This document shows positions 16,849 through 64,000 of a stretch of DNA of 64,000 bases, piece by piece. Every line of letters starts with the position of its first letter. Position 1 is the stretch's first letter. The notes beneath the pieces are model-generated. The model did not search any database and was not told where the DNA came from. It was given only the letters and a program-made list of their open reading frames with translations. Position numbers and translations under genes: made by a program. Location of the stretch: positions 135-64,134 of the forward strand of contig DATKWT010000091.1 of NCBI GenBank assembly GCA_035529395.1. The letters are read 5' to 3'. The DNA is from Dehalococcoidales bacterium (GTDB lineage: Bacteria; Chloroflexota; Dehalococcoidia; Dehalococcoidales; Fen-1064).

Positions 16849-16896
16849 CACAACCCTGGGATGGCTCTGGATGTTCTGCATGAAAGGACAGTTGAG

Positions 16897-17193: not shown

Positions 17194-17219
17194 TGATGTC
17201 AGAAAGCGGGGGTAATGAA

Positions 17220-18805: not shown

Positions 18806-18891
18806 CGTGGGTAACCCCACCCCAGGGAAGACCGTCCCCATGTGCGGGACGGTTTCTGACATATTCCCACGGAACGGAGAAGGGAGAGACT

Positions 18892-20088: not shown

Positions 20089-20120
20089 GCAATTCCACGC
20101 CTCGCGGAGGGATAGAGAAA

Positions 20121-21609: not shown

Positions 21610-21691
21610 GGAGATGGTATATAATTCACGTGGGTGCGGAACCATAGTGTAGAATAACCAATGCATTAAAAAGAAGATTGGAGAAATCCAG

Positions 21692-44968: not shown

Positions 44969-44977
44969 TGCTCCCTC

Positions 44978-46324
44978 CTAAGCTTTCCACGATTTCAGGT
45001 AGGCTGGAATGTGGGCTGCGTCCCTGGGGCCAACCATTATCTCCCAGCCGGGTAGCTCCTCTTCAATGCCTCCACTCTCCGCAGCGGCGTAACCGGGGAT
45101 TATGAGCTTCCGGTGCTTGACCTTGTCTTCGATGCCGCTCTTCTTAACGAACGGACCGATAAGGTCAGCCACGAACTTGCCTGCCGCCCAGGCGGTCATT
45201 ACGGAAAGCCCTTCGGTGTCCATTATCAGGAGGTGACTGGGTACCTTGCTGCCTTCTATCTCGCCGGAGACGATGAAGTAGGTTAATGCAAAGTTGGTGG
45301 TAACCAGTACCGGGGAGTTCTCGTTTGGATTGTTGATATCGTAGATGCCCTGTTCCGTTGCCAGTGGCCGCTGAGGGTCGGTGAAGATGTTCAGCCGTTC
45401 GACGAGTAACGGGAACAGACTCTCTCCATAGAGGTCAGAGAGAACGATGATTCCACCGTATTTAGCGACGAGCATGGCGGAAATCATTCCTTCCTTCATC
45501 GGGTTATCCGTCATCTCACAGGGGAAGGCAATCGTGGGGAATCCCAGAGGACGGAACTTGCCGGCAAGTGCCGCGTTTCGGGTGATAACCTGGTCCTCGA
45601 AGGTCTGGCGAACGGTCCTGGCCCCGGAGTCAATAACAATATCATTAACACCGGCATCCATCAGCTTCTGGGTGAGCTCGGAAAGCTCTTCGAGTCCGTC
45701 AGCCTTGACACCAATCGAGGAGGAGTTCTCCTTGACAAGCTCCGCCATGGCATCGAGGTTATCTTTGGTCGCACCATAGACCAGCGGTTTCTGGTCGGCG
45801 CACTCCTTCAGACCGGCAGCAAGAATAGTTGTGTCTTCACTCATAAGGATAAGGTTAGCATCACTGTTCTGGGCCACCTTGCTGACCAGGGCTCCGAACT
45901 TTGCGGCGTCCCCTGATTCGCTCTTGATCGCCACCAATTCGGGGCGGAGGTGCAGGCCGACTCTCTCAAACTGGAGTTCCTTGAATCTCTGAAGCCTGCC
46001 GTCAACATCCGCATCAGACATAGCATCGCTGACGAGTACGGCTACTGCCGTCGGGTTCTCGAGGCGTTTTTCGTGGCGGAACATAACCGTCTCGCCGCCG
46101 ACCTTCACCGCCTCGGGACCAGTGCCGATGGTAACTGCCCTGATGGGAGGTGCCGAGGCCTCAGCGAGTTGTTCCGTTGCCTCTTCGGAGACGTGCGGAC
46201 AGGCAGAGAGCTCCGCCTTGCCCGATGCCAGGTTCATGGCAAAGGCGAGGCAGGTGGGCACTCCACAATCGCCGCAGTTCGTCTTTGGCAGCAGTTTGAA
46301 TATCTGTATTCCGGTAAGTGCCAT
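44978..46324 (-). CDS. acsC: Corrinoid/Fe-S protein large subunit
   Basis: The N-terminal 4Fe-4S motif is NCGDCGVPTCLAFAM...C. Start at MALTG after AAAGGAG (the track adds 38 aa overlapping acsB). Confidence 0.9.
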   Translation of the reverse strand: MALTGIQIFKLLPKTNCGDCGVPTCLAFAMNLASGKAELSACPHVSEEATEQLAEASAPPIRAVTIGTGPEAVKVGGETVMFRHEKRLENPTAVAVLVSDAMSDADVDGRLQRFKELQFERVGLHLRPELVAIKSESGDAAKFGALVSKVAQNSDANLILMSEDTTILAAGLKECADQKPLVYGATKDNLDAMAELVKENSSSIGVKADGLEELSELTQKLMDAGVNDIVIDSGARTVRQTFEDQVITRNAALAGKFRPLGFPTIAFPCEMTDNPMKEGMISAMLVAKYGGIIVLSDLYGESLFPLLVERLNIFTDPQRPLATEQGIYDINNPNENSPVLVTTNFALTYFIVSGEIEGSKVPSHLLIMDTEGLSVMTAWAAGKFVADLIGPFVKKSGIEDKVKHRKLIIPGYAAAESGGIEEELPGWEIMVGPRDAAHIPAYLKSWKA

Positions 46325-46340
46325 AGTCGTGACTCCTTTC

Positions 46341-48548: not shown

Positions 48549-48582
48549 TCTATACCTCCCTTATCTCTCTCAACACAGGCAT

Positions 48583-50544
48583 TTAGGTCAGCTCGCGCCT
48601 CATCTCCATGTCATAGAGTACGCGTTCCCTGGCCTTATCAATGCCCAGGGCTTTACGTTTCTTGTCGATGTGGTCAATCATCAGGTGGGCTGCCTTGATT
48701 GGGTCCTCTTCAAATCCCCACATCCCACCGTACATGTCTTCCATTTCCTTGAACAGGAAGTCGGTCACTTCTTTGCTTCCCAGAGTGGGCCAGTTAACGC
48801 CGAATACGGTATACACTCCCGAAGCGACGAAGTACTGTCCGATGGATATTGCCTTCTCGCTCATCCACTCCGGTGCTGCTCCGGCTACCGGCAGGTCACT
48901 GATATCATCACCTAAACCGCCGTCTTTGACCATAGCGGTGGCGGCTATCAGGATACGGCTGTTGTCCACGCAGGAACCCATGTGGAGTACAGGCGGGATA
49001 CCAACCGTCTCACATACCTCTCTCAGGCCCTCACCGGCGAACTCGGCAGCTGCTTCCGGCACCAGGAGTCCTGCCTCGGCGCAGGCAATAGCGTTGCAGC
49101 CGGTGGTAACCACCAGCACATCGTTCTTTATCAGTTCCTTCACCATGGCAATGTGACCCTCATTGTGCTTGACGCGGGCGTTATTGCAGCCAACGACGCC
49201 GGCGAGACCCCTTATCCGGCCGTTAATGATGTTATCATTCAGTGGCCGGTAGGAGGCCCGGAACATGCCGCCCAGCAGGTAGTTGATGGTCTCGTGGCTG
49301 AATCCGGCAATCTGAGTAGTCTCATTGTCAGGAATGCCAACATTCCCCTTGCGATTGGGGAAGTTCTCAATAGCGGTTTTGACTATCTCCCGGGCCGATG
49401 TCAGGGCATCATGCTCGTCAAACTCGATGTGGATGGCTCCAGGTATCTTGGCCTTGGGTGAGGTGGTGATAATCTTGGTATGGTAGCACTCCGCTACCGT
49501 GGTTATGGACTGGAAGATGCACTGGACATCCACTACCATAGCATCCACGGCTCCGGTTACTATGGCCAGCTCCTGCTGCAGGAAGTTGCCGGCTATGCCT
49601 ACTCCGTGGCGCATCAGTATCTCGTTGGCAGTACAGCACATACCGGCCAGATTAATGCCCTTGGCACCTTTCGATTTGGCCAACTCCACCATTTCCGGCT
49701 CCTGGGCAACAGCTACAATTATCTCGGAAAGCAGTGGCTCGTGGCCGTGAATAATAATGTTGACCTCGTCTTTTCTGAGTACGCCCAGGTTTGCCTTGCC
49801 TAGAATAGGGGCCGGGGTGCCAAAGAGTATGTCCTGGAGCTCGGTAGCAATCATGCTGCCACCCCAGCCATCGCCAATGGCTGCCCTGACACCCTGCTTG
49901 AGCAGGTTCCTGTAGTCCTGGTCAACCCCGATGTGGGTCCGGTGCATTATCTCGACGATTTCCCTGTCAATACCCCGGGGGGCGACGCCCTGGCTTCGCC
50001 ATAGCTCCTGGCGTTTCAGTGGCGCTTTCCTCAGGGTTATCAGCTCACCCTCCTGCCGGCCGAACTCGGCCAGGGCTTTTTCACCGATATCAACGGCTAT
50101 TTCACTATTGCTGCGGTCGCCAATATCGATACCCCAGTCCAGAGCTAGCTGCAGCAGTTTCTGCTCATCCTTTATCTCGTATCCGGGGGCTTCTCCCCTG
50201 GCGGTTGCCAGGAATAACTCGGCTGTTCCCCGGCCGTGGTCGGAGTGGGCCGATGCTCCTCCGGCTATCATCCGGATGAAATTGCGGGCCGCGATGGTCT
50301 CAGCGGTAGCCCCGCATATGCCTCTTCTTTTCAGTTTTTGTTCGGGTGTTTCCTCTTTGCCTTTGGGCAAAGGTACCCGGCAGGGTCCCATAGCACAGTT
50401 CTTGCAGCAACTACCGACAGAACCTATGGGACAGGGTTTCATGGCATCAGCTCTATCGAAAGCGGTATTGACTCCGTCGGCGGTTGCCTTCTTTATCAGC
50501 TCGATAGTAGCCTGATCGATGCTTTTATTCTCTGCCTCTGACAT
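48583..50544 (-). CDS. cooS: Anaerobic Ni,Fe carbon monoxide dehydrogenase catalytic subunit
   Basis: The N-terminus carries CPIGSVGSCCKNCAMGPC. It also has HGHEP, the GMCCTANE region and GSCVDN. Confidence 0.95.
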   Translation of the reverse strand: MSEAENKSIDQATIELIKKATADGVNTAFDRADAMKPCPIGSVGSCCKNCAMGPCRVPLPKGKEETPEQKLKRRGICGATAETIAARNFIRMIAGGASAHSDHGRGTAELFLATARGEAPGYEIKDEQKLLQLALDWGIDIGDRSNSEIAVDIGEKALAEFGRQEGELITLRKAPLKRQELWRSQGVAPRGIDREIVEIMHRTHIGVDQDYRNLLKQGVRAAIGDGWGGSMIATELQDILFGTPAPILGKANLGVLRKDEVNIIIHGHEPLLSEIIVAVAQEPEMVELAKSKGAKGINLAGMCCTANEILMRHGVGIAGNFLQQELAIVTGAVDAMVVDVQCIFQSITTVAECYHTKIITTSPKAKIPGAIHIEFDEHDALTSAREIVKTAIENFPNRKGNVGIPDNETTQIAGFSHETINYLLGGMFRASYRPLNDNIINGRIRGLAGVVGCNNARVKHNEGHIAMVKELIKNDVLVVTTGCNAIACAEAGLLVPEAAAEFAGEGLREVCETVGIPPVLHMGSCVDNSRILIAATAMVKDGGLGDDISDLPVAGAAPEWMSEKAISIGQYFVASGVYTVFGVNWPTLGSKEVTDFLFKEMEDMYGGMWGFEEDPIKAAHLMIDHIDKKRKALGIDKARERVLYDMEMRRELT

Positions 50545-50590
50545 TGTGCAACTCCTCTCCTCTCCAATATTCCAGGTGGCTGTGAGCTAC

Positions 50591-51535
50591 TTATGTAGCC
50601 GTTAATTCAGCTACCATTTCCCGGACCAGCTTGATTGCTTCCGGGTGTCTCATTACTAACAGGTCCCCACCTGCCAGAAGCAGGGTCATGGCGGACATCG
50701 CTTCCAGCAGGATACCGCGCTTCCTGGCGTCTCCCATGTTCATCTCGTTATCCGGGAGGTGGACTTCCTTGGACTTCCAGACCTCTTTGGACAGGTTGCA
50801 GACGATGGGGAACTGGAGCTTGTCGTCCTGCTGTGTCAGTCCGGCCATCCTCATTCTCTCCATCACCGAATAGGCGTATTCGATACCGTAACCAATACTG
50901 CTGACGGTGGGGTCGATGACAATCTGCTTATCAGGCACGCCAAGGTTACCCAGCAGGATATTGAGCTGCTTGGCCAGGTTAATGTCTATCGGGGTGGAGG
51001 CCACCACGGTGTGTTTATAGGCTATGGCGGCGGCGCCAATACGCTTGTGGTTCGCTTCCTGTACCGGCCCGATAATCAGGCTCTTGTCCTGGCAGGCCTC
51101 GGCCACTGCCCTGAGTACCTCGGTATCCTTGTCAACATTGGCTGTCCCCCAGACGAGGAGAGGAACATCAATGGCATCAGCCACCTTCTTCACCACTGCG
51201 GCGGCTTCCTCAGCCCCGCGGTCAAGTCCGTTGGGGTCGGTGCTTTCCAGCGAAAGGGCAATCATCTCTGCCCCGTAGTCATCGATGCACTTCTTCGCCC
51301 AGGCAACGGGGTCGTCGGTCACACCGGCGAAGGGTTCCAGCGCAGCCTCAGCCCACTCCTGTGGAGGACAGTCGAGCACCTCCATAGCTATCCTTGGCTG
51401 GCGTGGCATCTCACCTTCGAACAGGTAGAACGGGTAGACGGTCTCGCCGCCGACCACTACGGCCTTGTCCCCCTTGCCGAGCGATACTTCTTTTATCTTA
51501 CCGGTGTAGGATGTTTTCGGAATATCAAAAGCCAT
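50591..51535 (-). CDS. acsD: Corrinoid/Fe-S protein small subunit
   Basis: 314-aa TIM-barrel protein located between folD and cooS. Confidence 0.85.
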   Translation of the reverse strand: MAFDIPKTSYTGKIKEVSLGKGDKAVVVGGETVYPFYLFEGEMPRQPRIAMEVLDCPPQEWAEAALEPFAGVTDDPVAWAKKCIDDYGAEMIALSLESTDPNGLDRGAEEAAAVVKKVADAIDVPLLVWGTANVDKDTEVLRAVAEACQDKSLIIGPVQEANHKRIGAAAIAYKHTVVASTPIDINLAKQLNILLGNLGVPDKQIVIDPTVSSIGYGIEYAYSVMERMRMAGLTQQDDKLQFPIVCNLSKEVWKSKEVHLPDNEMNMGDARKRGILLEAMSAMTLLLAGGDLLVMRHPEAIKLVREMVAELTAT

Positions 51536-51549
51536 CTCTGTTCCCCTCT

Positions 51550-51768
51550 CTAGGCCGGATTCTTTCTTTTTTCGCTGCCGAACCAGTCATCTGAGTACCA
51601 GTACCGCTCACCGGTCTCCAGGTACTTCAGCTTTTCTTCACGGCTGGACAGCTTTTGTCGCCATTTACCGACTTCTTCACCCTCGGGCTGGCCATCTTCA
51701 TAAGTGGGACCCAGTACCTCTACTGCGTCTCTACCCGGGGCTTTCACTTTTTCGACCTGGTATTCCAT
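51550..51768 (-). CDS. Hypothetical 72-aa charged/aromatic protein inside the WL operon
   Basis: AAGGAGGG RBS. It sits 14 nt upstream of acsD and 18 nt downstream of folD. I recognise no family. Confidence 0.5.
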   Translation of the reverse strand: MEYQVEKVKAPGRDAVEVLGPTYEDGQPEGEEVGKWRQKLSSREEKLKYLETGERYWYSDDWFGSEKRKNPA

Positions 51769-51786
51769 ATTCCTGTACCCTCCTTA

Positions 51787-52674
51787 CTAGGCCAGACCGG
51801 CAGCCAGCTTTGCTGCTCTGACCGTATTCAGCATTAACATGGTTATCGTCATCGGGCCGACACCACCGGGTACCGGCGTTATGGCGCTGGCCTTTTCCTT
51901 GACGGAATCGAAGTCAACGTCTCCGCAGAGGATTCTCTTACCTTCAGCAGTCGTACCGATCTGGTTAACACCGACATCGATGACCACGACGCCTTCCTTG
52001 ACCATGTCTGCGGTGATTGCCTTCGCTTTACCCGCGGCCACAATCAGTATATCGGCTCGCCTGGTGTGGAAAGCCATGTCTTTGGTCCGGGTGTGGCATA
52101 TCGTGACTGTGGCGTTGGCGCCCTCTTTCTTCTGAAGGAGCATGTTTGCGATTGGCTTGCCGACGATATTGCTTCTACCGACAACGACTACCTCGGCCCC
52201 TTCGGTCTGCACGCCGGACCTGATGAGAAGCTGCTGGATACCGTGTGGCGTACAGGGCAGGTAGTCCGGTTCCCCAATCATCAGCTTACCGATGTTAACC
52301 GGGTGGAATCCATCAACGTCCTTCTTGGGGTCGATTGCGATAAGCACCTCGTTCTCGTTGATGTGCTTCGGCAGAGGGAGCTGTACCAGGATCCCGTTGA
52401 TTTTGGGGTCTTTGTTGAGCCGGTCAACCAGGGTCATCAGGTCCTCTTGACTGGTGTCCTCGGGAAGGTCATATCTCTCCGAATAGACGCCCAGGTTCCC
52501 GGCCGTCTTTTCCTTCTGCCCGACATAGACCTGTGATGCCGGGTCTGCACCCACCAGAACAGTGACCAGTCCCGGTACCACATTGTGTTTCTCTTTGAGT
52601 TGGGCTATCTCTTCTTTCAACTCGGCGCGAATCTGCTTGGCGACATCGGCGCCTCTGATTATCTGTGCTGTCAT
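51787..52674 (-). CDS. folD: Bifunctional methylene-THF dehydrogenase / methenyl-THF cyclohydrolase
   Basis: PGLVTVLVG.DPAS..YV, VQLPLP, GRSNIVGKP and PGGVGPMT. Start at MTAQII, 5 nt after GGAGG. Confidence 0.9.
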   Translation of the reverse strand: MTAQIIRGADVAKQIRAELKEEIAQLKEKHNVVPGLVTVLVGADPASQVYVGQKEKTAGNLGVYSERYDLPEDTSQEDLMTLVDRLNKDPKINGILVQLPLPKHINENEVLIAIDPKKDVDGFHPVNIGKLMIGEPDYLPCTPHGIQQLLIRSGVQTEGAEVVVVGRSNIVGKPIANMLLQKKEGANATVTICHTRTKDMAFHTRRADILIVAAGKAKAITADMVKEGVVVIDVGVNQIGTTAEGKRILCGDVDFDSVKEKASAITPVPGGVGPMTITMLMLNTVRAAKLAAGLA

Positions 52675-52785
52675 TGCCCCCTCCATCATTATAGGATTTA
52701 TAGCATACGCAATACCAGTTCCCCGGTCTTTTTCCGGGTTCCCGGCACGTATTCTAACTGGCTTGAGTGTATCCTGTACCTCCTG

Positions 52786-53562
52786 CTAACGGGTAGATAT
52801 TTTCGTCTGGTCAAGGACCTGTTCCATGAGGTCTCTGACCACCTGCACCGCTGGCGAAGTATCCGGTAGTTCGAGCAGTGGTCTGAGCTCCAGGTCGTAG
52901 CGGTAAACCTCTTCGTCTTTCGGGATTATCGCAGCAAGTTCTATTCCCTGGCGCTCCAGTTCCTCCTTCACCAGTGGGTCGAGCTCGTCGGGAGCGGCGC
53001 TGATTACGGGCAGCAGTTTCTTTACTGTCAGCTTGAGGCTGGACACCAGCTCTATTATCCGGGCAATAGTCCGGACACCCTTCACGGAGTGGTTCGATAC
53101 CAGGAATAGAACATCAACGTCCTGAGTGGTCCTGCGGCTCAGGTGCTCCATCCCGGCCTCATTGTCCATGACCATGTAAGCGTAGTTGTCTGCCAGGGTA
53201 TCGGCGAACTTCTTAAGGATGACATTAGGGTAGCAGTAGCATTCCGGACCCTCGCCCCGGCCCATGGTCAGGAGGTCAATCCGGGGACTCTCCACCAGTA
53301 TCTCGTTCAGCTTGAAATCCAGGTAAAGTTCTTTCGTCATCCCCGGAGGGATGTTTATCTTGTCCCCCTGAAACTCGTCCAGCATTTTACCGACAGTCTG
53401 CCTGACGGTTAATCCCAGGCTTTCTCCGAGATTGGCATTGGCGTCGGCATCCACGGCCAGGATAGGTCCTGTGCCGCTATTCTTCAGGTAGCGGATAACG
53501 AGACTTGCCAGCGAAGTTTTACCACTGCCACCCTTCCCTGCCACCGCGATATTAAAGCTCAA
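52786..53562 (-). CDS. cooC: CooC/AcsF-type Ni-insertion ATPase (copy 1)
   Basis: Deviant Walker A AGKGGSGKT and a CYC (CxC) metal-binding motif. TTG start after AGGAG. Confidence 0.85.
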   Translation of the reverse strand: MSFNIAVAGKGGSGKTSLASLVIRYLKNSGTGPILAVDADANANLGESLGLTVRQTVGKMLDEFQGDKINIPPGMTKELYLDFKLNEILVESPRIDLLTMGRGEGPECYCYPNVILKKFADTLADNYAYMVMDNEAGMEHLSRRTTQDVDVLFLVSNHSVKGVRTIARIIELVSSLKLTVKKLLPVISAAPDELDPLVKEELERQGIELAAIIPKDEEVYRYDLELRPLLELPDTSPAVQVVRDLMEQVLDQTKISTR

Positions 53563-53596
53563 ATGGTTCTCCTACACTATGCTTATCAGGTATTGA

Positions 53597-55360
53597 CTAG
53601 AACAGACCGGACACCTTTCCGGTATTCACATCGACATCTACCTTCCGGAAGGCGGGGCTGGATGAAGTACCCGGCATCAGGCTGATGGTGCCGGCGCACG
53701 GGCAGAGGAACTTGGCCCCGGAGTAAATGAGAATATCGCGGATGGGCAGCGTCCACCCCTTTGGCACACCCTTCAGAGTCGGGTCATGGGTCAGGCTGAG
53801 GTGGGTCTTAACCATCATCGTGGCATAGTCATCGTACTGCGAGTCCCCCTCCATCTTCTTGGCCTTTTCCTCGGCATCCGCAGTCCAGGAAACGCCGTCG
53901 GCGCCATAGACGACCTTGGCAATTTTCTCGACGCGGTCCCGCAGCTTCATATCGATCGGGTAGAGGAAGTCGAAATTGGTTTCTTCCTTGCAAGCGTCAA
54001 TAACGGCATCGGCAAATTCCAGGGCACCATCACCACCGTCCGCCCAGTGGCTGGAGACAGCGCAGCGTGCTCCGGCGGCCTCGGCGGCCTTCCTGACCGC
54101 AGCGATCTCGTCCTTGGTGTCGGTGTAGAACGAGTTGATGCAGACCACCGGGTTTATGCCCGATGTCCTGATGGTATTGATGTGATGCAGCATATTGGGT
54201 ATGCCCTTTTCAACAAGTTCCACGTTTTCTTTCGTATACTCTTCGGGCAGGGCGAGACCGGCAACCACTCTGGGTCCACCGCCATGCATTTTCAGAGCGC
54301 GGATAGTGGTGGTAAGTACCGAGACATTGGGTTTGAGACCGCTGTAGCGGCTCTTGACGTTCCAGAACTTCTCAAAACCGATATCGGCGGCAAAACCGCT
54401 CTCGGTGACGTGGTAGTCGAACAGCTTCAGCCCGACACGGTCACCAATGATGGATGACTGGCCCACGGCGATGTTGGCGAACGGACCGGCGTGGACCATC
54501 AGTGGCTGATATTCGACAGTGGAGCACAGGGTGGGGTTGATGGTGTTCCGCATCCAGGCCGTCATTGCACCACCGACTCCCAGGTCCTTGGTAGTGACCG
54601 GCTTGCCTCGCCTGTCGAAGGCGACGGTGATATTGTCCAGTCTCTCGCGTAGGTCAGCGAGGTCACGCACGATGGAAAGGATGGCCATGAGTTCCGAGCC
54701 CACGGCGATACCGAACTTGGACTGCATGGTGAAGCCGTCCATTCGGCCGCCAATACCGATGATAATGTTGCGCAGACTCTGGGCACAGAAGTCCATTATC
54801 CAGCCCATCTCCACACGGGTGGGGTCTACACTCAGGCGGGGCATCCCGGTGAGTTTTTCGAGTTGGGTATCGCTATAGTTTCTCTCGTGCTGCATTCTGG
54901 CGGTCAGCGCTACCATCGCCAGATTGTGAGCGTTCATGATGTCATTGATGTCGCCGGTGAGTCCCATGGAGAACTCGGTCATCGGGATAAGCAGGGAATT
55001 GCCACCGCCGGCAGCAGTACCCTTGACGTTCATCGTCGGGCCACCGGAAGGCTGACGGAGACACCCGCCGACATTCACGCCTCGTTTGCCCAGGCCCTCC
55101 ATCAGGCCGACTGAAGTGGTGCTCTTGCCTTCTCCGAGCGGTGTGGGGGTGATGGCGGTTACCTCGATGTACTTGCCATCAGGCTTGTCCTTGAGACGGT
55201 CGATAATCTTGAGGAAGTCGAGCTTGGCTATCCTTCCGTAGGCGAGGAGCTCCTCCTTTTCCAGGCCAAGCTTGTCGCGCCACTCATCAGGGGTGGGCAT
55301 GTTCTGTTCGGCCGCTTCGGCTATTTGCCAGTCCTCCATTTTTACCGCGTCGTAAGCCAT
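53597..55360 (-). CDS. fhs: Formate-tetrahydrofolate ligase
   Basis: [16 protein letters not shown]. Start at MAYDAV after AGGGAGG (the track adds 36 aa reaching into cooC). Confidence 0.95.
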
Positions 55361-55436
55361 TGAAACCTCCCTATTATATATGTCTATTTCCTTAAAGAAC
55401 TCCGGTCCTGAACTCTCGTTTTTTCTCGCAACCCTT

Positions 55437-56228
55437 TTACTGCCTGGCAGTACCTGATACTTGAGCACCAGATATCAAAGCCTGATAAATCTCACCTATA
55501 CGGGCGGAAATCTGCGGGCTTGATTCGTGAATGGGACGGTTAGCCAGGTCTGCGTCTACCAATGCCTGGTCATAAGGAATAAAACCGAGAAACGCCATAT
55601 CGGGTAAACTGGAAGTGATAAACTCCCTGTCCGACTGATTGTGGATTTTATTACCGACTACGGCGATATTATTCACCCCGATGTCCTCGGCCAGCCCACG
55701 TATGCGGCGAGCTGTTTCAATGCTTCGCCTGCCCAGTTCAACCACGATAATCAGCCTGTCGACCGCTCTTGCGGTTCCCCGGGAGAGGTGCTCTATCCCG
55801 GCTTCCATGTCAACGATAACCACCTCGTCTCTCTGTAGCAGCAGGTGGCTGAGCAGGGCTTGCAGCAGAACGCCCTCGGCGCAGTAGCAGCCGGTACCTC
55901 CCCGCTTTATCCGCCCCATCACCATCAGTCTTATCCCGTCATGCTCGACGGCATAGGTCTCGGGAATATCATCAACCCTGGGATTCAGCTTAAAGAAGAA
56001 GCCTGACTGGCCGGGTCGTGCTCCGGTCCTTTCTTCAATAAGGTCCTCGAGCTTGGAGACAGGCGTTATCTCCTCTGGTTGTGGAAAGCCAAGGTTCGCG
56101 GCCAGATTAGCATCAGGGTCGGCATCTATCGCCAACACCGAGTAGCCAGCCGCAGTAAATGCTCTGGAAAGCAGGGAAGCTAGCAATGTCTTCCCCACTC
56201 CCCCTTTGCCACTGATAGCAATCTTCAT
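55437..56228 (-). CDS. cooC: CooC/AcsF-type Ni-insertion ATPase (copy 2)
   Basis: SGKGGVGKT and a GCYC (CxC) motif. It is the first gene of the operon. Confidence 0.85.
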
Positions 56229-56319
56229 CTATATCGTATACTAGCACAACAAAGCTGAGTCCTTCACAGGGGAAGCACTCAGCCCTGACGAAGCCTCATA
56301 TCAGCTAGCTTCCACATTT

Positions 56320-56348
56320 AGTATAGCCCACGCGATAGACCAAGTCAA
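56320..56348 (-). promoter_or_regulatory. Promoter TTGACT-17 nt-TATACT of the WL operon
   Basis: Read on the minus strand. It gives a ~85-nt leader containing a hairpin at 56254-56283 (GCTGAGT...ACTCAGC with an inner CTTC/GAAG). Confidence 0.6.
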
Positions 56349-56694
56349 ACTCCACGGGAACCCGGCTACGCTGGTACGTACCCTGCAGGCTACCGGAAAA
56401 CGTACCTGGAGCAACCGGGTGCTTATTGTCTTTATATAAGGTACCGGGTTCACCAATATCAGGCCGAATAGATTGTAATATCTTTGAACGAGGATGTCAA
56501 TCCACTGTACTGGCATTGTAGTGTACGGAATGTATCTGAACTAGCTCATCCACCGGATGGCTTAACGGTTGGCAGGCGTTCCATGTTGAGGTTCGAGCTC
56601 TCGTTCAGGCAGATAGGTGACACAACAGAGTAAGGTGTTGTGGTCACTACCCAACGGCCTATTCCTGCAGAAAAAGGGAAGATTTCTTCTTTTA

Positions 56695-56746
56695 TGGCAG
56701 CCAGCATTGACTGTATTGGAGTGTCACAATGTCCTGAATACCGACA
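56695..56746 (+). repeat. Conserved ~52-nt non-coding element, copy 2 (family 2)
   Basis: See 13658-13710. It lies 17 nt upstream of the mraZ -35 hexamer. Confidence 0.6.
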
Positions 56747-56763
56747 TTTCTATGAAAAGGGTC

Positions 56764-56816
56764 TTGACAAATGGAGAAAAGTGTGGCAAAATGGCGTGAA
56801 TTGGTGAATTGTGGGA
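56764..56816 (+). promoter_or_regulatory. mraZ promoter (TTGACA-17 nt-CAAAAT) with three TGGnn direct repeats at 10-bp phase
   Basis: TGGCG (56792), TGGTG (56802) and TGGGA (56812) start at the -10 and TSS. The arrangement resembles the MraZ operator (TGGGN repeats, 10-bp periodicity) described in E. coli. Confidence 0.55.
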
Positions 56817-56897
56817 AGAATCGTAGATACTGACCAGGACAACAGGCGGTATGAACAGAAGTTCTGTTGCCACTGATTGAACCATAGAGGTACCTTG

Positions 56898-57323
56898 ATG
56901 TTTCTTGGTGAGTTCGAATACAGGATTGACGAAAAGGGCAGGGTGCCCATTCCACCCAGGTTCCGTAAGGACCTGGTAGAGGGAGTGGTACTGAAGCCCG
57001 GGCTCGACACGTGTATTGCTGGTTACGGACTGGCAGAGTGGGCGAAAGAGGCGGAGAGAATCGCCTCTGCTACCATGTCCGCCAGCAAGCGGAGAAGACT
57101 GGGCCGGGCTATGTTCGCCACTGCCTACAACCTTACTCTGGATGGACAGGGCAGGATATCCCTGCCACCTGCCCTGCGGCAGTATGCTCAGGTCGGTGAT
57201 GAACTCATTGTTATCGGAGTCAATACGCACTTCGAACTCTGGAACAAGGAGCTATGGGAGGCAGAGAGGACTCTCAGCCTGGAGCAATCCTGGCAGATAA
57301 TGGAGGGTCTGGAGGAACATTGA
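56898..57323 (+). CDS. mraZ: Transcriptional regulator MraZ
   Basis: [23 protein letters not shown] plus a second SpoVT/AbrB repeat [13 protein letters not shown]. Confidence 0.9.
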
Positions 57324-57337
57324 GGAGTCTGCAAGTA

Positions 57338-58327
57338 ATGGCATCGACTCATCTGCCGGTACTGGTGAAGGAAGCTATCCAGGGGTTGGCAGTCCGGCCC
57401 GGAGGGCGCTATGTAGACTGCACCATTGGTGGTGGCGGACACGCCGTCGCGATTCTGGAACACAGCTCGCCCGGTGGACAGCTCCTCGGTCTCGATGCTG
57501 ACCCTGAGGCAGTGAGTATCGCCCGGGGCAGGCTGGAGACCTATCGTGATGCCGTACTGATTGCCAACGAGAACTTCGTCAGACTCCGCTCCGTCTGTGA
57601 CGAGTATGATTTCTATCCGGTACACGGAATACTTTTTGACCTTGGACTGTCTTCCTTACAGCTGGCCAGTAATGCCCGAGGGTTCAGCTTTCAGCGTGAA
57701 TCGGCGCTGGATATGCGTTTGAGCCCTGAGCAGGAGACTACAGCGGAGGATATTGTCAACACACTCACGGAGGACGAGCTTGCCAACCTGCTTTGGACAT
57801 ACGGTGAGGAAGCTCGCAGTCACCGGATAGCGCGCCGTATCGTGGAGGAGCGGCCTGTACGGACAACTTTTCAGCTTGCCAGAATAGTCGAGCTTGCCGT
57901 CGGCGGTCGGAGGGGCAGAATCCACCCGGCAACGAAGACATTCCAGGCACTGCGTATTGCAGTCAACCGGGAACTGCAGAACCTGGAGAGCGTGCTGGAG
58001 CAGGCCGTTGGCCTTCTGGGATTCGAGGGCAGGCTGGCTGTCATCAGCTACCATTCACTGGAGGACCGCATCGTTAAGCGGTTCATGCAGAGGGAATCGC
58101 GGGACTGTATCTGCCCGCCGGGTATACCGAGGTGTGTTTGCGGACACACCGCCAGTATAAGGATGGTCAACAGGAAGGTGATTAGACCTTCTCCAGATGA
58201 GGTCCAGCTGAATCCGCGCAGTCGCAGCGCCAGGTTGAGGGTTGCCGAGCGCCTGGCTGCACGGGAGGAGAATCAGTGGACCGACTCGGAGAATATTGGA
58301 GGAATACCAGGCTTTCCTGATAACTGA
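57338..58327 (+). CDS. rsmH: 16S rRNA (cytosine1402-N4)-methyltransferase
   Basis: [32 protein letters not shown] and [10 protein letters not shown]. Confidence 0.9.
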
Positions 58328-58427
58328 CACGAGATAATCGTGACCCATGCCAAAAAAGGGGGCGTTTAAGATGTAAGAGAATACCACCTGCCAGGAACAA
58401 AATCCACTTAACAATAAGGAGGGGTGA

Positions 58428-59642
58428 ATGAGTAAGTGGAATACTATATCCGCTATCGATGTTGGTACCACCAAGGTCTGCACCATAGTTGCTGAGACCA
58501 ACGAAAATGGTCTTATGCGCGTGGCTGGTGTGGGACTTGCTCCGTCCGCAGGATTACACAAGGGACTGGTGGTCAATATCAGTGATGCCAAGGACTCAAT
58601 CCGTGAATCCGTGAGAAAGGCCGAGCAGGCCAGCGGCTATCAGATTGAGTCAGCCTACGTTGGAGTTACCGGACGGCACATTAGTGCCCGCAACAACCGG
58701 GGTGTAGTCGCCATCACTCGTAATGATAGGCTGGTCCGCTCCGATGACCTCAAACGGGTCCTGCAGACTGCCCAGACTGTAAAAGTCCCCAGTGACGAAA
58801 GACTGCTCCATCTTATCCCGCGTAACTATACCGTTGATGGGCAGGAGGGGGTCAAAAACCCGGTAGGCATGCACGGGTTCCGACTGGACGTAGAGACACA
58901 CGTTATCACTGCTGCCGTGTCCTCCGTCCAGAACCTGGTCAAGTGCATCCGTGGCGTAGGGGTTGATATCGAAGACCTCGTGTTCGAGCCCCTGGCCAGC
59001 AGCGAGGCAGTGTTGAGCGAGGATGAGAAACAAGTCGGAGTCGTCATGGCTGACATTGGCGGCGGCACCACAGATATTTCCGTCTTCAAGGACGGCAGCA
59101 TCTGGCACAGCGCCATACTGCCTGTGGCCGGCTACCAGTTTACCAGGGATATCGCTATCGGTCTTGGCCTGCCCTTCGAGGTGGCCGAAGAAATGAAACG
59201 GAAGTACGGCACCGTGATGCCGGTGCACGAAGACAAGCCACAGACCGATGCCATAGCCCAGAATGGTCACAACATTTCCTACCAGAGCCTGTGTGACATA
59301 ATCCGCGCCAGAGTAGATGAGCTCATCAGGCTTATCGCGCTCGAACTGCCGCGTGCCGAGTTCGAGACACTGGTACCTGCCGGTCTTGTGCTCACCGGTG
59401 GCAGCTCGAACCTTGCCGGTATAGATGTCCTGGGTCGAGAGATACTCGGAGTCCCGGTGCGGGTAGGCGGGCCGGTCGGCATATATGGCATCTCAGATGT
59501 CCTGCACAACCCGGCCTATGCCACCAGTGTTGGTCTACTGCTCTGGGGAATGAAACCCAGGAGTGTGACGAACTGGAGGTCACGCAGCGTTGCAGGAAGC
59601 TTCCGGAACCTGGTCTTTCGCATAAGGGGCCTGTTCCACTAG
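58428..59642 (+). CDS. ftsA: Cell division protein FtsA
   Basis: Actin-fold motifs AIDVGTTKV and DIGGGTTD, with a C-terminal amphipathic segment FRNLVFRIRGLF. Confidence 0.9.
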   Translation: MSKWNTISAIDVGTTKVCTIVAETNENGLMRVAGVGLAPSAGLHKGLVVNISDAKDSIRESVRKAEQASGYQIESAYVGVTGRHISARNNRGVVAITRNDRLVRSDDLKRVLQTAQTVKVPSDERLLHLIPRNYTVDGQEGVKNPVGMHGFRLDVETHVITAAVSSVQNLVKCIRGVGVDIEDLVFEPLASSEAVLSEDEKQVGVVMADIGGGTTDISVFKDGSIWHSAILPVAGYQFTRDIAIGLGLPFEVAEEMKRKYGTVMPVHEDKPQTDAIAQNGHNISYQSLCDIIRARVDELIRLIALELPRAEFETLVPAGLVLTGGSSNLAGIDVLGREILGVPVRVGGPVGIYGISDVLHNPAYATSVGLLLWGMKPRSVTNWRSRSVAGSFRNLVFRIRGLFH

Positions 59643-59687
59643 AGGATTCTCATAAGAACAGAGTAACAAAGGAAATAGGAGGAGAAT

Positions 59688-60818
59688 ATGGCGAGAACTA
59701 CCTTTGCCCCCAATCCTGTCAAGATTAAGGTCATCGGTCTCGGTGGCGGTGGTTGCAACGCAGTAACCCGCATGGTAAGGCAGGATATTAAGGGCGTAGA
59801 ATTTATTGCCATGAATACCGATGCTCAGGCCTTGGCTATCACTGAAGCCCCGCTCCGTGTCCAGCTTGGCGATAAGCTGGTACGAGGGTTGGGTGTGGGT
59901 GGTGACCATATGCAGGGGCAGAAAGCGGCTGAGGAAAGCAAAGACGAAATCAGGGAGTACATCTCCGGGGCGGACATGGTGTTTATCACCGCCGGCATGG
60001 GTGGTGGCACCGGTACGGGGGCTGCTTCTGTAATAGCCGAGGTTGCTAAGCAGAGTGGAGCACTGACGATTGCCGTGGTCACACGCCCGTTCACCTTCGA
60101 GGGTGCACATCGTGCCCAAGTGGCCAACGACGGCATTGCCCGACTTCTGGACAAGGTGGTTGATACCCTGATAATTATTCCCAATGACCGCTTACTGGAG
60201 CTTTGCGACCATAAGACGGGCGTAGATGAGGCCTTCAGGATGGCGGACGATGTACTCAGCCACGGTGTTCAGGCAATCGCCCAGGTAATCACCGTACCCG
60301 GGATGATAAACCTGGACTTTGCCGACGTTAAGGCGGTGATGAAAGACGCCGGGCCTGCCTGGATGTCTATCGGTAAGGGGACAGGACAGCACCGTGCGGC
60401 TGATGCCGCCAAAGAAGCCCTGGAAAGCCCCTTGCTGGACGTCTCCGTGGGTGGTTCCAGAGGTGTGCTGTTCAACGTGGTGGGCAGCGACGACCTAACC
60501 CTCTTCGAGGTTAACGAGGCCGCCGAGATAATCAAGGCGGCAGTGGACCCCGAGGCCAACATCATCTTCGGCGTGGTCCACGACCCCACAATGGACAAGG
60601 AGATAAAGATAACGCTCATCGCCACCGGCTTCACCAACAAGATAGATTTGCCGGGAGACAATAAGGACGATGAGATCACCGAGTTCCTGAAGGAATGTAA
60701 GAGCGAAGACCAGCTCGATATTCCTGCCTTCCTGCGTCGCCCTCTCTACAACCAGCGGCGCGCTCCTGCGCAGTCGACTACTACGCCTCACCCGACCACA
60801 CATCCCCTCTTCCGCTAG
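59688..60818 (+). CDS. ftsZ: Cell division protein FtsZ
   Basis: GLGGGGCNA, GGGTGTGAA and a C-terminal DIPAFLRR peptide. Confidence 0.95.
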   Translation: MARTTFAPNPVKIKVIGLGGGGCNAVTRMVRQDIKGVEFIAMNTDAQALAITEAPLRVQLGDKLVRGLGVGGDHMQGQKAAEESKDEIREYISGADMVFITAGMGGGTGTGAASVIAEVAKQSGALTIAVVTRPFTFEGAHRAQVANDGIARLLDKVVDTLIIIPNDRLLELCDHKTGVDEAFRMADDVLSHGVQAIAQVITVPGMINLDFADVKAVMKDAGPAWMSIGKGTGQHRAADAAKEALESPLLDVSVGGSRGVLFNVVGSDDLTLFEVNEAAEIIKAAVDPEANIIFGVVHDPTMDKEIKITLIATGFTNKIDLPGDNKDDEITEFLKECKSEDQLDIPAFLRRPLYNQRRAPAQSTTTPHPTTHPLFR

Positions 60819-60861
60819 GTTCGAGTAACGGCGCGTGGGGTGACTGCTACCCCATGAAACT

Positions 60862-60904
60862 CAGCAGGGCTGCAGGGTGTTTCTCAGGCCTTGCAGCCCT
60901 GCTG
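60862..60904 (+). terminator. Hairpin after ftsZ (13-bp perfect stem CAGCAGGGCTGCA / TGCAGCCCTGCTG, 17-nt loop)
   Basis: Read directly from the sequence. The U-tract is weak (TTG). A second small hairpin lies at 60836-60854. Confidence 0.5.
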
Positions 60905-61047
60905 TTGCCGGGTCAGAACTCCGGCACTTCCCATTCCCGTGTTGGCCCGGACGGGGCCGCCTTCTTGCCTTATCACCATATTTCCGCACGCGTGGCCGCT
61001 TTTCTGCCGGTCGATAGCAATTGCCCACCAATCGTGATGAAAAGTGC

Positions 61048-61101
61048 TTGACAAGTACTATATGTTGTGGTTTAATGGTTGTCCTGCCCCATATATAGGT
61101 G
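61048..61101 (+). promoter_or_regulatory. nrdR-nrdJ promoter (TTGACA-17 nt-TTTAAT) overlapped by two NrdR-box-like palindromes
   Basis: Box 1 at 61055-61070 (agtaCTATATgTTGtg) matches 12/16 positions of the acaCwAtATaTwGtgt consensus. Box 2 at 61086-61101 has the core CCATATATAG. Their centres are 31 bp apart. Confidence 0.6.
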
Positions 61102-61128
61102 ATAGGATACTACGGGAGTTGGAGTCTG

Positions 61129-61668
61129 ATGAACTGTCCCTATTGCGGTTATCATGATTCGCGGGTGATGGATTCGCGCGAGGTAAATGAAGGAATACGT
61201 CGGCGTCGTCAGTGCCTCGGTTGCGGAGCGCGTTTCACCACCTATGAGCGTATTCAGCCGGTAAGCCTGTTTGTTATCAAGAAGGATAACCGGCGCGAGG
61301 TATTTAATCGGGAGAAGATGTTGAGTGGTATGCGTAAAGCCTGCGAGAAACGACCACTGCCGACCGATGTGGTGGACAGACTGGCGGATGAAATTGAGGC
61401 CGAACTGTACAATTCAGGAAGGGCGGAGATACCCGGTACGATGATTGGTGATGCGGTAATGAGGCGGTTGAAGGGTCTGGACCATATTGCCTACATCCGT
61501 TTCGCCAGTGTCTACCGTGAGTTTGCCGATATCACTGCTCTGAAGCAGGAAATTGACACTCTGATGGGTGATGAGGTCGAGGTAACGCCACCGAGTACCC
61601 AGTTGCCGCTGATGCCTGATGAGGGAGCGGGGGTGGGAGCGAGAGGACCTCAGGGGAGTGAGAAATGA
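61129..61668 (+). CDS. nrdR: Transcriptional repressor NrdR
   Basis: Zinc ribbon MNCPYCG...CLGCG followed by an ATP-cone (VIKKDNRREVFNREK). Confidence 0.9.
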   Translation: MNCPYCGYHDSRVMDSREVNEGIRRRRQCLGCGARFTTYERIQPVSLFVIKKDNRREVFNREKMLSGMRKACEKRPLPTDVVDRLADEIEAELYNSGRAEIPGTMIGDAVMRRLKGLDHIAYIRFASVYREFADITALKQEIDTLMGDEVEVTPPSTQLPLMPDEGAGVGARGPQGSEK

Positions 61669-64000
61669 ACGCACCGGAGCGCTCGCAGGATAGGCAGGTG
61701 AACCAACTCAGCCGTACCCAGATTGCGCGGGCGACGTTCCAGGCGGCGGAGAGCATGGGTATTTCGGACAGGAACCATATAGAGCGGCTCACCAGGCGGG
61801 TTATCGAGCGGCTGGAAGAGAAACGGACTACCCTTACTCAGGGTAATATGGGGCCAGTCCGGCCTCTGCCCGGGATGGAAGACCTGATGCCGAAGTCCTA
61901 CCGCCAGCAGAAACACCTGACCAGCGAATCGGAGATACTGGAGATGGTCAAGGAGTTCCTGGATGCCGAAGAACCGACACAAATTCAGGAGGTAATACCA
62001 AAGATGAAGGTTGTCAGGGATTTGAGCACCGATAGAGTAGCTGTCTCCGGATTGCACCTTACGGAGAATGCACAGCGTGTGCTTGAAAAGCGGTACTTGC
62101 GGAAGGACGGAGAAGGGCAGGTTGTCGAGCAACCGGAAGAGCTGTTCCACCGGGTAGCGCGAGCTATTGCTGCGGCAGAAGCTACCTATGGCTCCCAAAA
62201 AGATGCCGATACCTGGGAAGCAGAGTTTTACCAGGTTATGACCAGCCTGGAATTCCTGCCCAATTCCCCCACCCTGATGAATGCCGGCCGTGAGCTCGGG
62301 CAGCTATCCGCCTGCTTCGTCCTGCCGGTCGAGGACTCCATGGAGTCGGTCTTCAATGCCGTGAAGAATACGGCCTTGATACACAAGAGTGGCGGCGGGA
62401 CCGGGTTCTCATTCTCTAAGCTGCGACCGGAAGGCGACCATGTAGGTTCCACCGGTGGTGTGGCCAGTGGCCCTGTTTCCTTCATGCGTGCATTTGATAC
62501 CGCTACCGACGTAATCAAGCAGGGAGGGATGAGACGCGGTGCCAATATGGCCATCCTGAGAGTTGACCATCCTGACATCATGAAGTTTATCACGGCCAAG
62601 GATGACCCTACTGCCTTCACCAACTTCAATCTGTCCGTAACTGTCACCAATGAGTTCATGGAAGCGGTCAGGACCGGAGGGGACTACAACCTGGTGAACC
62701 CGCGTACCGGGCTGGTGGTGAAGACCCTGAACGCGAAAGAAATGTTTGACATAATCGTGGCAAATGCCTGGAAGACGGGTGACCCCGGGATTGTCTTCAT
62801 CGACCGGATAAACGAGCATAACCCCACCCCGCATCTGGGTAGTATCGAGAGTACGAACCCCTGCGGCGAGCAACCCCTGCTGCCTTATGAATCCTGTAAC
62901 CTGGGTTCAATAAACCTGGCCAGAATGCTCCATGATGTCGATGGCAAGACCGAGATTGACTATCCCAAGCTGGCAGAAACGGTAAAGGTTGCCGTCAGAT
63001 TTCTTGATGATGTCATTGAGGTCAACCAGTACCCGATACCGGATATTGCCGAGATGACCAGGCAGACCCGCAAGATAGGTCTGGGTGTGATGGGCTTTGC
63101 CGACATGCTGCTCCAGCTTGGCCTTCCCTACAATTCGGAGGAAGCGATGCAGGTGGCGCGGGATGTCATGGAGTATATACAGATCGAAGCCACGGCAGAA
63201 TCGAAGCAGTTGGCTACCGAGAGGGGAGTCTTCCCGGCCTTCAAGGACAGTGTCTACGATAAGCCCGACGGCATCAAGGTGAGAAATGCCACTAGAACTA
63301 CCATCGCGCCCACCGGCACCCTGTCTATAATCGCCGGTTGCTCCAGTGGTATCGAGCCACTCTTTGCCCTGAGCTACGTACGAAATATCCTCGATGGTGC
63401 CCGGATGGTGGAGGTAAATCCCTATTTTGAGGAGGTGGCCAGGAAGGAGGGCTTCTATTCTGACGAGCTCATGGAAAAGCTGGCTAACGGCATCAGTCTA
63501 CATGATATTGAGGGTATCCCCGACCATGTGAAGCGATTGTTTGTCACTGCCCACGAGATTAGTCCGGAGTGGCATGTACGGATGCAGGCTGCTTTTCAGA
63601 AAAACACCCACAATGCGGTATCCAAAACGGTCAACTTTCCACGCCAGGCGACCAGAGAGGATATCGCCAACGTTTATAATATGGCCTACGAGCAAGGGCT
63701 GAAAGGAATAACCACTTACCGTGACGGTAGCCGTGAGAATCAGCCGATGAGTACCGGTGCCGCCGCGGAGGAAGCGGGGGAGACCATGATTGCCCCCCGG
63801 AAGCGGGCCAAGATGACGACCGGGATCACGGAGCGGGTACGTACCGGATGCGGGTCCCTGTATGTTACGGTAAATTCTGATGAGTACGGGATTTGCGAGG
63901 TCTTCTCGACTTTGGGGAAGTCCGGCGGGTGTGCCTCGGCACAGCTGGAAGCCACCTGCCGCCTCATTTCACTGGCGCTGCGGGCAGGCATGGACGCAGA
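61665..64000 (+). CDS. nrdJ: Class II (adenosylcobalamin-dependent) ribonucleotide reductase, 3' truncated by the window edge
   Basis: The open frame has no stop to the window end and is absent from the ORF track for that reason. Motifs are LEKRYL, LSACFVLPV, GGGTGFSFS.LRP and STNPCGEQPL. The ATG at 61665 overlaps the nrdR stop (ATGA). An alternative in-frame start at 62004 follows AGGAGG. Confidence 0.85.
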   Translation, partial: MNAPERSQDRQVNQLSRTQIARATFQAAESMGISDRNHIERLTRRVIERLEEKRTTLTQGNMGPVRPLPGMEDLMPKSYRQQKHLTSESEILEMVKEFLDAEEPTQIQEVIPKMKVVRDLSTDRVAVSGLHLTENAQRVLEKRYLRKDGEGQVVEQPEELFHRVARAIAAAEATYGSQKDADTWEAEFYQVMTSLEFLPNSPTLMNAGRELGQLSACFVLPVEDSMESVFNAVKNTALIHKSGGGTGFSFSKLRPEGDHVGSTGGVASGPVSFMRAFDTATDVIKQGGMRRGANMAILRVDHPDIMKFITAKDDPTAFTNFNLSVTVTNEFMEAVRTGGDYNLVNPRTGLVVKTLNAKEMFDIIVANAWKTGDPGIVFIDRINEHNPTPHLGSIESTNPCGEQPLLPYESCNLGSINLARMLHDVDGKTEIDYPKLAETVKVAVRFLDDVIEVNQYPIPDIAEMTRQTRKIGLGVMGFADMLLQLGLPYNSEEAMQVARDVMEYIQIEATAESKQLATERGVFPAFKDSVYDKPDGIKVRNATRTTIAPTGTLSIIAGCSSGIEPLFALSYVRNILDGARMVEVNPYFEEVARKEGFYSDELMEKLANGISLHDIEGIPDHVKRLFVTAHEISPEWHVRMQAAFQKNTHNAVSKTVNFPRQATREDIANVYNMAYEQGLKGITTYRDGSRENQPMSTGAAAEEAGETMIAPRKRAKMTTGITERVRTGCGSLYVTVNSDEYGICEVFSTLGKSGGCASAQLEATCRLISLALRAGMDA

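Follow-up and report, generated by a model that had tools for sequence, protein, structure and literature searches.

The mraZ-rsmH-ftsA-ftsZ gene cluster examined here lies in a 64 kb stretch of DNA (the window) from the metagenome-assembled genome (MAG) of an uncultured Dehalococcoidales bacterium. Its four genes are arranged head-to-tail on the plus strand and span 4.1 kb, compared with approximately 16.8 kb from mraZ to ftsZ in Escherichia coli. The intergenic gaps measure 14 nucleotides (nt) between mraZ and rsmH, 100 nt between rsmH and ftsA, and 45 nt between ftsA and ftsZ, and thus leave no space for a concealed gene. The cluster is a genuine, well-conserved reduced form of the dcw (division/cell-wall) operon in a peptidoglycan-less member of this order, an arrangement that has already been described. 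The initial annotation had reported that mraZ-rsmH is followed directly by ftsA-ftsZ. The open reading frame (ORF) positions and family scores above curated cut-offs bear this out, and the gene boundaries it gave on either side of the 100-nt interval are exact. Coordinates are collected in Table 1, with gene starts taken from gene-caller choices on identical public contigs.

Table 1. Location and description of the four-gene cluster, its predicted control elements, and the adjacent metabolic cluster within the window
Feature	Position	Strand	Description
Predicted sigma-70-type promoter	56764-56792	+	-35 TTGACA 56764-56769; 17-nt spacer; -10 CAAAAT 56787-56792; TG at 56784-56785 (extended -10)
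Putative MraZ operator	56781-56814	+	GTGT 56781-84, ATGG 56791-94, TTGG 56801-04, GTGG 56811-14
mraZ	56898-57323	+	141 amino acids (aa); transcriptional regulator with two SpoVT/AbrB-like halves; TIGR00242, PF02381
rsmH (mraW)	57338-58327	+	329 aa; 16S rRNA m4C1402 methyltransferase; TIGR00006, PF01795 (E 2e-105)
rsmH-ftsA spacer	58328-58427	+	100 nt; ends in ribosome-binding site AAGGAGG
ftsA	58428-59642	+	404 aa; actin-like membrane tether for FtsZ; TIGR01174, PF14450, PF02491
ftsZ	59688-60818	+	376 aa; tubulin-like GTPase; TIGR00065, PF00091, PF12327
G+C-rich hairpin	60862-60904	+	16-17 bp stem, 44 nt past the ftsZ stop; inverted repeat 94% complementary
Wood-Ljungdahl cluster	44093-56228	-	Pterin-binding methyltransferase, CdhD/AcsD-like protein, ACS beta, CooS-type CODH, second CdhD-like protein, FolD, CooC-like ATPase, formate-tetrahydrofolate ligase, second CooC-like ATPase

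Family assignment relied on Pfam and NCBIfam profiles, and all four proteins exceed their NCBIfam equivalog cut-offs. MraZ reaches 111 bits against TIGR00242 (cut-off 98) and contains two PF02381 stretches (E 9e-31). RsmH scores 333 bits against TIGR00006 (cut-off 154), FtsA 391 bits against TIGR01174 (cut-off 176), and FtsZ 400 bits against TIGR00065 (cut-off 295). In FtsA, the SHS2-type 1C insert is recognized as PF02491 at residues 82-161. Comparison with the two closest relatives indicates purifying selection on every gene, with ratios of nonsynonymous to synonymous substitution (dN/dS) between 0.10 and 0.42 (mraZ 0.13-0.42, rsmH 0.21-0.30, ftsA 0.12-0.14, and ftsZ 0.10-0.17). It has to be considered that the four genes might be decaying relics with no division role and on their way to being lost, as the entire four-gene cluster is dispensable in vitro in Mycoplasma genitalium (PMC8475190) and, according to the abstract of a preprint, some Mollicutes lack ftsZ entirely (bioRxiv 10.1101/2025.09.01.673419). 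Against this view stand the intact frames, the high family scores, the retained catalytic and interaction motifs, and FtsA identities of 60-96% across 80 species. Such decay is extremely unlikely, and pseudogenisation was rejected on the dN/dS range and the intact motifs.

Eleven public contigs, drawn from ENA, JGI, and Logan assemblies, encode an FtsZ identical to that of the window. Since the window is metagenome-derived and MAG contigs can be chimeric, the rsmH-ftsA junction could in principle reflect an assembly or binning artefact, or a private deletion in one clone. However, six independent assemblies, produced by three pipelines from different samples, match the overlapping parts of the window at 99.8-99.9% identity, and five of the six span the junction. 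The junction is not an assembly artefact because independent assemblies reproduce it. As the same gene order also occurs in 63 other species, both the artefact and the private deletion were rejected, and the probability left to them is negligible.

Relatives were gathered by scanning one genome per GTDB species, which yielded 80 loci; every one comes from a MAG of Dehalococcoidales, Dehalococcoidia, or Chloroflexota. Sufficient upstream sequence to judge gene order was available for 76 of these species representatives, and the mraZ-rsmH-ftsA-ftsZ order is retained in 63 of them. This recurrence indicates that the order is not due to chance. The ftsA gene adjoins ftsZ in 77 of the 80 loci, and the true gap between rsmH and ftsA measures 43-161 nt in 55 of the 64 loci measured. 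The closest FtsA, with 96% identity, belongs to the Black Sea MAG BS750m-G43. The source organism is placed within the order Dehalococcoidales but outside the genus Dehalococcoides. The best FtsA matches support the order. An average G+C content of approximately 55% and a carbon monoxide dehydrogenase/acetyl-CoA synthase (CODH/ACS) with a CooS-type subunit in the window speak against the genus. Dehalococcoides mccartyi is reported to lack the CODH subunit, and its presence in the window therefore argues against Dehalococcoides.

The interval between rsmH and ftsA usually carries peptidoglycan and division genes in other bacteria, as the initial annotation had stated. In E. coli K-12, it contains 11 of them, namely ftsL, ftsI, murE, murF, mraY, murD, ftsW, murG, murC, ddlB, and ftsQ. 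Searches with the corresponding 11 E. coli proteins (tblastn) gave no match at E <= 1e-3, neither in the window nor in 86 related loci. The positive controls of this run, E. coli MraZ, RsmH, FtsA, and FtsZ, all matched the window with E values from 2e-17 to 4e-75. The tblastn search is insensitive to FtsL and FtsQ, as both are poorly conserved; within the cluster, the gaps are too short for either. Pfam analysis of approximately 60 window ORFs, comprising essentially all those of at least 150 aa plus several shorter ones, detected no Mur ligase, MraY, MurG, SEDS, penicillin-binding protein, or FtsQ domain. The only FtsX-like match, at 361-1524, was not clearly attributable to FtsEX, since its MacB periplasmic domain and neighbouring ABC ATPase follow the layout of a MacB-type exporter.

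Published surveys place these absences in a broader evolutionary context. Wiegand et al. 2023 (PMC10608941) describe four-gene adjacency in D. mccartyi, Dehalococcoidales, and SAR202, tie it to wall loss, and match it to Mollicutes, while the basal orders Tepidiformales and UBA6077 are said there to retain dcw genes. Palmer et al. 2023 (PMC10284905) traced the disappearance of the DAP-type peptidoglycan pathway to one event in the ancestor of the wall-less orders and showed that Tepidiforma has peptidoglycan. Hidden Markov model surveys and ancestral-state reconstruction assign full loss of the core pathway to the ancestor of Dehalococcoidales plus a marine radiation (PMC10284905, PMC10608941). 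In SAR202, ftsZ, ftsA, and ftsK are reported, whereas ftsW and ftsI are lacking (PMC11994032). The comparison of the window with D. mccartyi and other Chloroflexota dcw loci was made through this literature and shows the same adjacency in the former, with dcw genes kept in the basal orders (PMC10608941). The contrast with Chloroflexota that possess a full dcw cluster rests on published work because no basal Dehalococcoidia or other Chloroflexota appeared among the best 120 FtsA protein matches, all of at least 73% identity. As the window groups with Dehalococcoidales, for which the literature reports adjacency and wall loss, the earlier proposal that the collapsed cluster fits a wall-less lineage is supported.

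An opposing possibility is that peptidoglycan is still made and that the mur and fts genes were relocated elsewhere, which would make this a fragmented rather than a lost dcw cluster. The genomic sequence examined amounts to 64 kb, and ddl, bacA, bcrC, and uppS persist widely in the class (PMC10284905), both of which leave room for such relocation. Nevertheless, the absence of tblastn matches extends over the window and approximately 1.19 Mb of flanking sequence from 80 related species, and relocation is further contradicted by the reconstructed loss of the core pathway and by the reported lack of ftsW and ftsI in SAR202. We regard relocation as very unlikely.

Upstream of mraZ, a sigma-70-type promoter is predicted with a scan score of 10/12 and a TG ahead of the -10 element. 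The first base of its -35 hexamer, 56764, coincides with the start of the region delimited by the initial annotation. Four putative MraZ boxes follow an exact 10-nt period and overlap the promoter spacer, the -10 element, and the predicted transcription start. They agree with the published format of GTG(G/T) separated by 6-nt spacers; most bacteria carry three such boxes and M. genitalium four, with the transcription start located within box 1 (PMC12957436). The relatives share a near-universal layout consisting of TTGACA, 17-19 nt, (T/C)A(G/A)AAT|GG, and then tagaaAGTGGtagaaAGTGG. The flanking consensus in them reads AAAGTGG and corresponds to the AAAGTG[T/G] box of Mollicutes (PMC8475190).

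A composite regular expression combining the -35 element, the -10 element, and three in-phase GG cores was applied to both strands of 1.19 Mb of related DNA. It returned 54 matches, every one of them upstream of mraZ. Alignment of the relatives shows little or no variation in TTGACA and at the A/A/A/T positions of the -10 element. A position matrix of the 54 loci places TGG at -1, 9, and 19, and the spacers between boxes are nearly free of C. Columns that the expression leaves free are also informative: A occupies -3 and -2 in 54/54 loci, a fourth GG appears at +30 and +31 in 46/54 and 38/54, and T stands at -11 in 51/54. The last column suggests an additional box in the promoter spacer. The distance from TTGACA to the -10-like hexamer overlapping box 1 is 19 nt in 31 of 54 relatives and the usual 17 nt in the window. 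A spacing of 19 nt is unusually long for a sigma-70 promoter; these relatives may have their true -10 at a shifted position, or it may be MraZ and not RNA polymerase for which the hexamer is conserved.

The MraZ protein itself retains the features expected of a box-binding regulator. The motifs D-x-K-G-R and D-x-x-G-R are present as DEKGR from residue 11 and DGQGR from residue 82. Residues D11, K13, R15, D82, and R86 occupy positions equivalent to those that contact DNA, or position such contacts, in the cryo-EM structure of M. genitalium MraZ (PMC12957436), and they are conserved in nearly all relatives. In the homologous four-gene cluster of M. genitalium, deletion of mraZ derepresses mraW, MG_223, and ftsZ, with ftsZ RNA rising approximately five-fold and FtsZ protein 25-fold (PMC8475190). 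We infer that MraZ most likely binds the boxes upstream of mraZ and represses its own promoter by occluding the -10 element and the start site. The question of what MraZ regulates in this organism, raised by the initial annotation, thus has a likely answer in its own four-gene operon. A full-text search of the open-access literature gave no title that links MraZ boxes to a Dehalococcoid- group, and the excerpted text of PMC10608941 mentions neither promoter, MraZ boxes, nor terminator for the four-gene cluster.

Sequence features between and beyond the genes bear on whether they form one transcription unit. The rsmH-ftsA spacer contains no ORF, promoter-like site, terminator match, or stable hairpin, and its folding z-score is -0.34. 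Among 57 relatives, only two carry a hairpin of -20 kcal/mol or stronger in this gap. Downstream of ftsZ, a 76-nt stretch that includes the G+C-rich hairpin folds with a minimum free energy of -44.5 kcal/mol (z -5.4; none of 200 shuffles equally stable). The hairpin in the window probably marks where the transcription unit ends. In 56 of 67 relatives, the first 150 nt past ftsZ also contain a hairpin of -20 kcal/mol or stronger, with sequences that differ between lineages. A separate TTGACA-17-TTTAAT promoter at 61048-61076 serves the next gene, nrdR, which lies within 1.3 kb downstream of ftsZ in 34 of 56 relatives. In a D. mccartyi expression network, ftsA and ftsZ (DET0342 and DET0343) are strongly linked, and ftsZ is linked to a surface-layer (S-layer) transcript (PMC5102406). 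The conserved promoter and boxes, the MraZ contact residues, a hairpin that follows ftsZ but not rsmH, and intact FtsA and FtsZ together indicate that MraZ most likely autoregulates one transcript.

Several observations weigh against this interpretation of the locus. Thirteen more distant lineages, with 60-66% FtsA identity, carry ftsA-ftsZ without mraZ-rsmH within 10 kb upstream, which indicates that ftsA-ftsZ is able to use its own promoter. In the window, the three-box pattern occurs once against 0.17 expected, and at least one match appeared in 16 of 100 shuffles. This single site is not significant alone, so the operator argument is carried by the cross-species pattern. The regular expression itself fixes part of the columns that were subsequently counted. 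The window boxes (GTGT, ATGG, TTGG, and GTGG) are also weaker than the mostly (A/G)TGG consensus of the relatives. The hairpin after ftsZ has no clear U-tract, and the terminator scan did not call it. A single mraZ-rsmH-ftsA-ftsZ transcript is the most economical reading; like the start site, it is a prediction. Finally, the claim of the initial annotation that every peptidoglycan and divisome gene is absent is supported for the cluster, the 64 kb window, and the relatives' flanks by tblastn and Pfam, and its genome-wide form rests on order-level literature.

The most direct competitor to a single transcript is that ftsA-ftsZ is transcribed separately, from a promoter located within the 100-nt spacer or close to it. 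In that case, MraZ would control mraZ-rsmH only, and the four genes would be neighbours as a relic of gene loss and not as a functional operon. The ftsZ gene of E. coli has internal promoters. The 13 lineages described above favour this arrangement, as do the few others in which a small ORF separates rsmH from ftsA. It is contradicted by the featureless spacer in the window and the rarity of hairpins in the equivalent gap, by the short distance between rsmH and ftsA in most relatives, and by the control of ftsZ by MraZ in the analogous Mollicutes cluster (PMC8475190). We consider a separate ftsA-ftsZ unit unlikely.

At the protein level, the components of a membrane-attached ring are retained. 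FtsZ contains the GGGTGTG nucleotide-binding signature, the FtsZ_C domain, and the C-terminal peptide DIPAFLRR. Among relatives, the GTP signature is found in 66 of 70 FtsZ sequences and the C-terminal peptide in 65 of 70. FtsA keeps its 1C (SHS2) subdomain and terminates in …GSFRNLVFRIRGLFH, a predicted amphipathic membrane helix as judged by eye, which we take to resemble the membrane-targeting helix of E. coli. A similarly basic and hydrophobic tail was seen by eye in all 79 relatives listed. With the FtsZ peptide and both the 1C subdomain and the tail of FtsA retained, the FtsZ-FtsA-membrane chain is intact. Liposomes can be deformed in vitro by FtsZ together with FtsA. Direct constriction and scission of the membrane under an S-layer, without septal wall synthesis, is the likely function.

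The explanation we favour, with a probability of roughly 85%, is an MraZ-autoregulated four-gene operon derived from wall loss. An ancestral full cluster would have lost all genes between rsmH and ftsA as the lineage gave up its murein wall, and this loss is proposed to have fused the two conserved cluster ends into one operon. Transcription would begin a few bases past the -10 element, traverse mraZ, rsmH, ftsA, and ftsZ, and stop at the downstream hairpin. An MraZ oligomer on the four GTG(G/T)-type boxes, which overlap the -10 element and start site, would repress its own operon and thereby set the dosage of FtsA and FtsZ. FtsA would then tether FtsZ polymers to the cytoplasmic membrane, with DIPAFLRR binding FtsA and the FtsA amphipathic helix inserting into the bilayer. 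Because FtsZ would be tethered to the membrane through FtsA, constriction would act on the membrane itself, with the S-layer outside, rather than guide septal wall synthesis. In this scheme, the identity, contiguity, and conservation of the genes, the pattern of cis-elements, the retained residues, and purifying selection are observed features of the locus, whereas co-transcription, MraZ binding and repression, the constriction mode, and the evolutionary history are what we infer from them.

Comparison with known systems shows how the locus relates to established dcw variants. It shares with the canonical 15-gene cluster of E. coli the mraZ-rsmH 5' end, the ftsA-ftsZ 3' end, a single strand, and an MraZ-box operator at the first promoter, whereas all 11 genes between rsmH and ftsA are missing. 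It conforms instead to the reduced type, in which the four genes are contiguous and the lineage, here assigned through FtsA loci of 60-96% identity, is known as murein-less. The remnant described for D. mccartyi, Dehalococcoidales, and SAR202 in PMC10608941 consists of the same adjacent four genes with the same intervening loss and belongs to the same order. The shared explanation is wall loss in a common ancestor, with an S-layer in place of the wall (see also PMC10284905). The window differs in representing another uncultured member, nearest to the Black Sea MAG, and 13 of the 76 relatives considered here deviate from the four-gene pattern.

The Mollicutes cluster mraZ-mraW-ftsA(MG_223)-ftsZ (PMC8475190, PMC12957436) has the same content and order and likewise occurs in a wall-less host. 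In both systems, GTG(G/T) boxes recur every 10 nt at the operon promoter, with four copies in the window and four in M. genitalium, and the MraZ contact residues D11, K13, R15, D82, and R86 are identical. The loss is nonetheless independent, as Chloroflexota and Mycoplasmatota are unrelated phyla. FtsA is canonical in the window, whereas MG_223 is a putative homologue only, and the literature assigns an S-layer to this group in contrast to the naked membrane of Mollicutes. That MraZ represses transcription has been shown experimentally in Mycoplasma and is a prediction here.

Collapse of the dcw cluster to mraZ-rsmH-ftsA-ftsZ marks wall loss and has been seen independently in Mollicutes and in the Dehalococcoidales/SAR202 radiation. 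The parts that remain are those independent of peptidoglycan, namely an MraZ-controlled promoter, an rRNA methylase, and an FtsA-FtsZ membrane ring. Since the arrangement and the wall loss have been published (PMC10608941, PMC10284905), the inference of the initial annotation is right but not novel. The explicit map of promoter, MraZ operator, and terminator, conserved across approximately 54 species, may be an incremental addition. The value of the window is mainly confirmatory; it also places the contig taxonomically and opens no new question, given that the role of the Z-ring without septal wall synthesis is already under study in mycoplasmas.

Variation around ftsA in the relatives includes conserved small soluble ORFs of approximately 70-85 aa, found immediately upstream of ftsA in 17 related loci (for example, L078, 8410-8619). 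They lie directly upstream of ftsA in L061, L069, L071, L075-L078, and L080-L086, and between rsmH and ftsA in L052, L056, and L057. They occur between the two genes in some lineages and in place of mraZ-rsmH in others. An example sequence reads MGTAIEYQKLMTEIVYINLPGPE…ELLHGFLAEL…CNKWNIRYRE. This ORF matches no Pfam family, is not present in the window, and may encode a lineage-specific division-associated protein. A second, unrelated ORF of approximately 72 aa (…SDPRIRMVEHIVAHYDRS..TDVRSILNETKVGAW…), also without a Pfam family, occupies a widened rsmH-ftsA gap in the three species represented by L022, L023, and L031. Upstream of ftsA-ftsZ, the 13 more distant Dehalococcoidales species in which this pair is uncoupled from mraZ-rsmH (L061, L069, L071, L076-L078, and L080-L086) carry a divergently transcribed, conserved gene of approximately 232 aa with a weak DUF5343 match (E 6e-4). 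It is conceivable, although doubtful, that this wall-less clade, described in the literature as S-layer-bounded, rebuilt its divisome around FtsA and FtsZ, with lineage-specific small-ORF partners replacing the peptidoglycan-linked late divisome and MraZ serving as a dedicated dosage switch for FtsA and FtsZ. If so, the window, which lacks these ORFs, would represent the barest state.

The flanks of the cluster contain further features. Rfam searches covered the whole window at the gathering threshold and 56000-61200 at E <= 1. They returned nothing except tRNA-His, which implies that neither the 670 nt preceding mraZ nor the sequence past ftsZ holds a riboswitch or known small RNA. The segment 56229-56763, which separates the mraZ promoter from the cooC-like gene by approximately 535 nt, holds no convincing gene and no Rfam match. 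It includes a near-consensus promoter on the minus strand (TTGACA-17-TACAAT, 56500-56472, score 11/12), from which the leader of the fhs operon would be approximately 240 nt. Past ftsZ, nrdR (61129-61668) is followed by a class II-type ribonucleotide reductase (61665-64000; reductase barrel plus TSCPD domain) that runs off the window end. Two AT-rich, palindrome-like elements near nrdR (~61057-61069 and ~61087-61101) look like candidate NrdR boxes.

Directly upstream of mraZ, the minus strand carries a complete Wood-Ljungdahl carbonyl-branch and folate cluster (Table 1). A block of iron and Fe-S housekeeping genes at 3491-13329 comprises DUF134, two Fur-family regulators, a NifB/NifX-like protein, two ParA/MinD-like ATPases with ferredoxin inserts, an Mrp/NBP35 Fe-S carrier, NifU, and FeoB. 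Several unannotated ORFs in the window match no Pfam family. At 25694-26926, a 410-aa protein has a C-terminal double [4Fe-4S] domain as its sole recognisable part; its first ~290 residues match no Pfam family. Within a Dehalococcoidales genome, such a layout calls to mind reductive-dehalogenase-like proteins, but no dehalogenase domain was detected. Three consecutive family III CoA-transferase paralogues of 430, 440, and 436 aa are encoded at 18796-23002. Nearby lie an old-yellow-enzyme-type flavoprotein fused to a pyridine nucleotide-disulphide reductase domain (14920-16848), a small 2x[4Fe-4S] ferredoxin (16861-17193), and a second disulphide-reductase-type flavoprotein (17193-18551).

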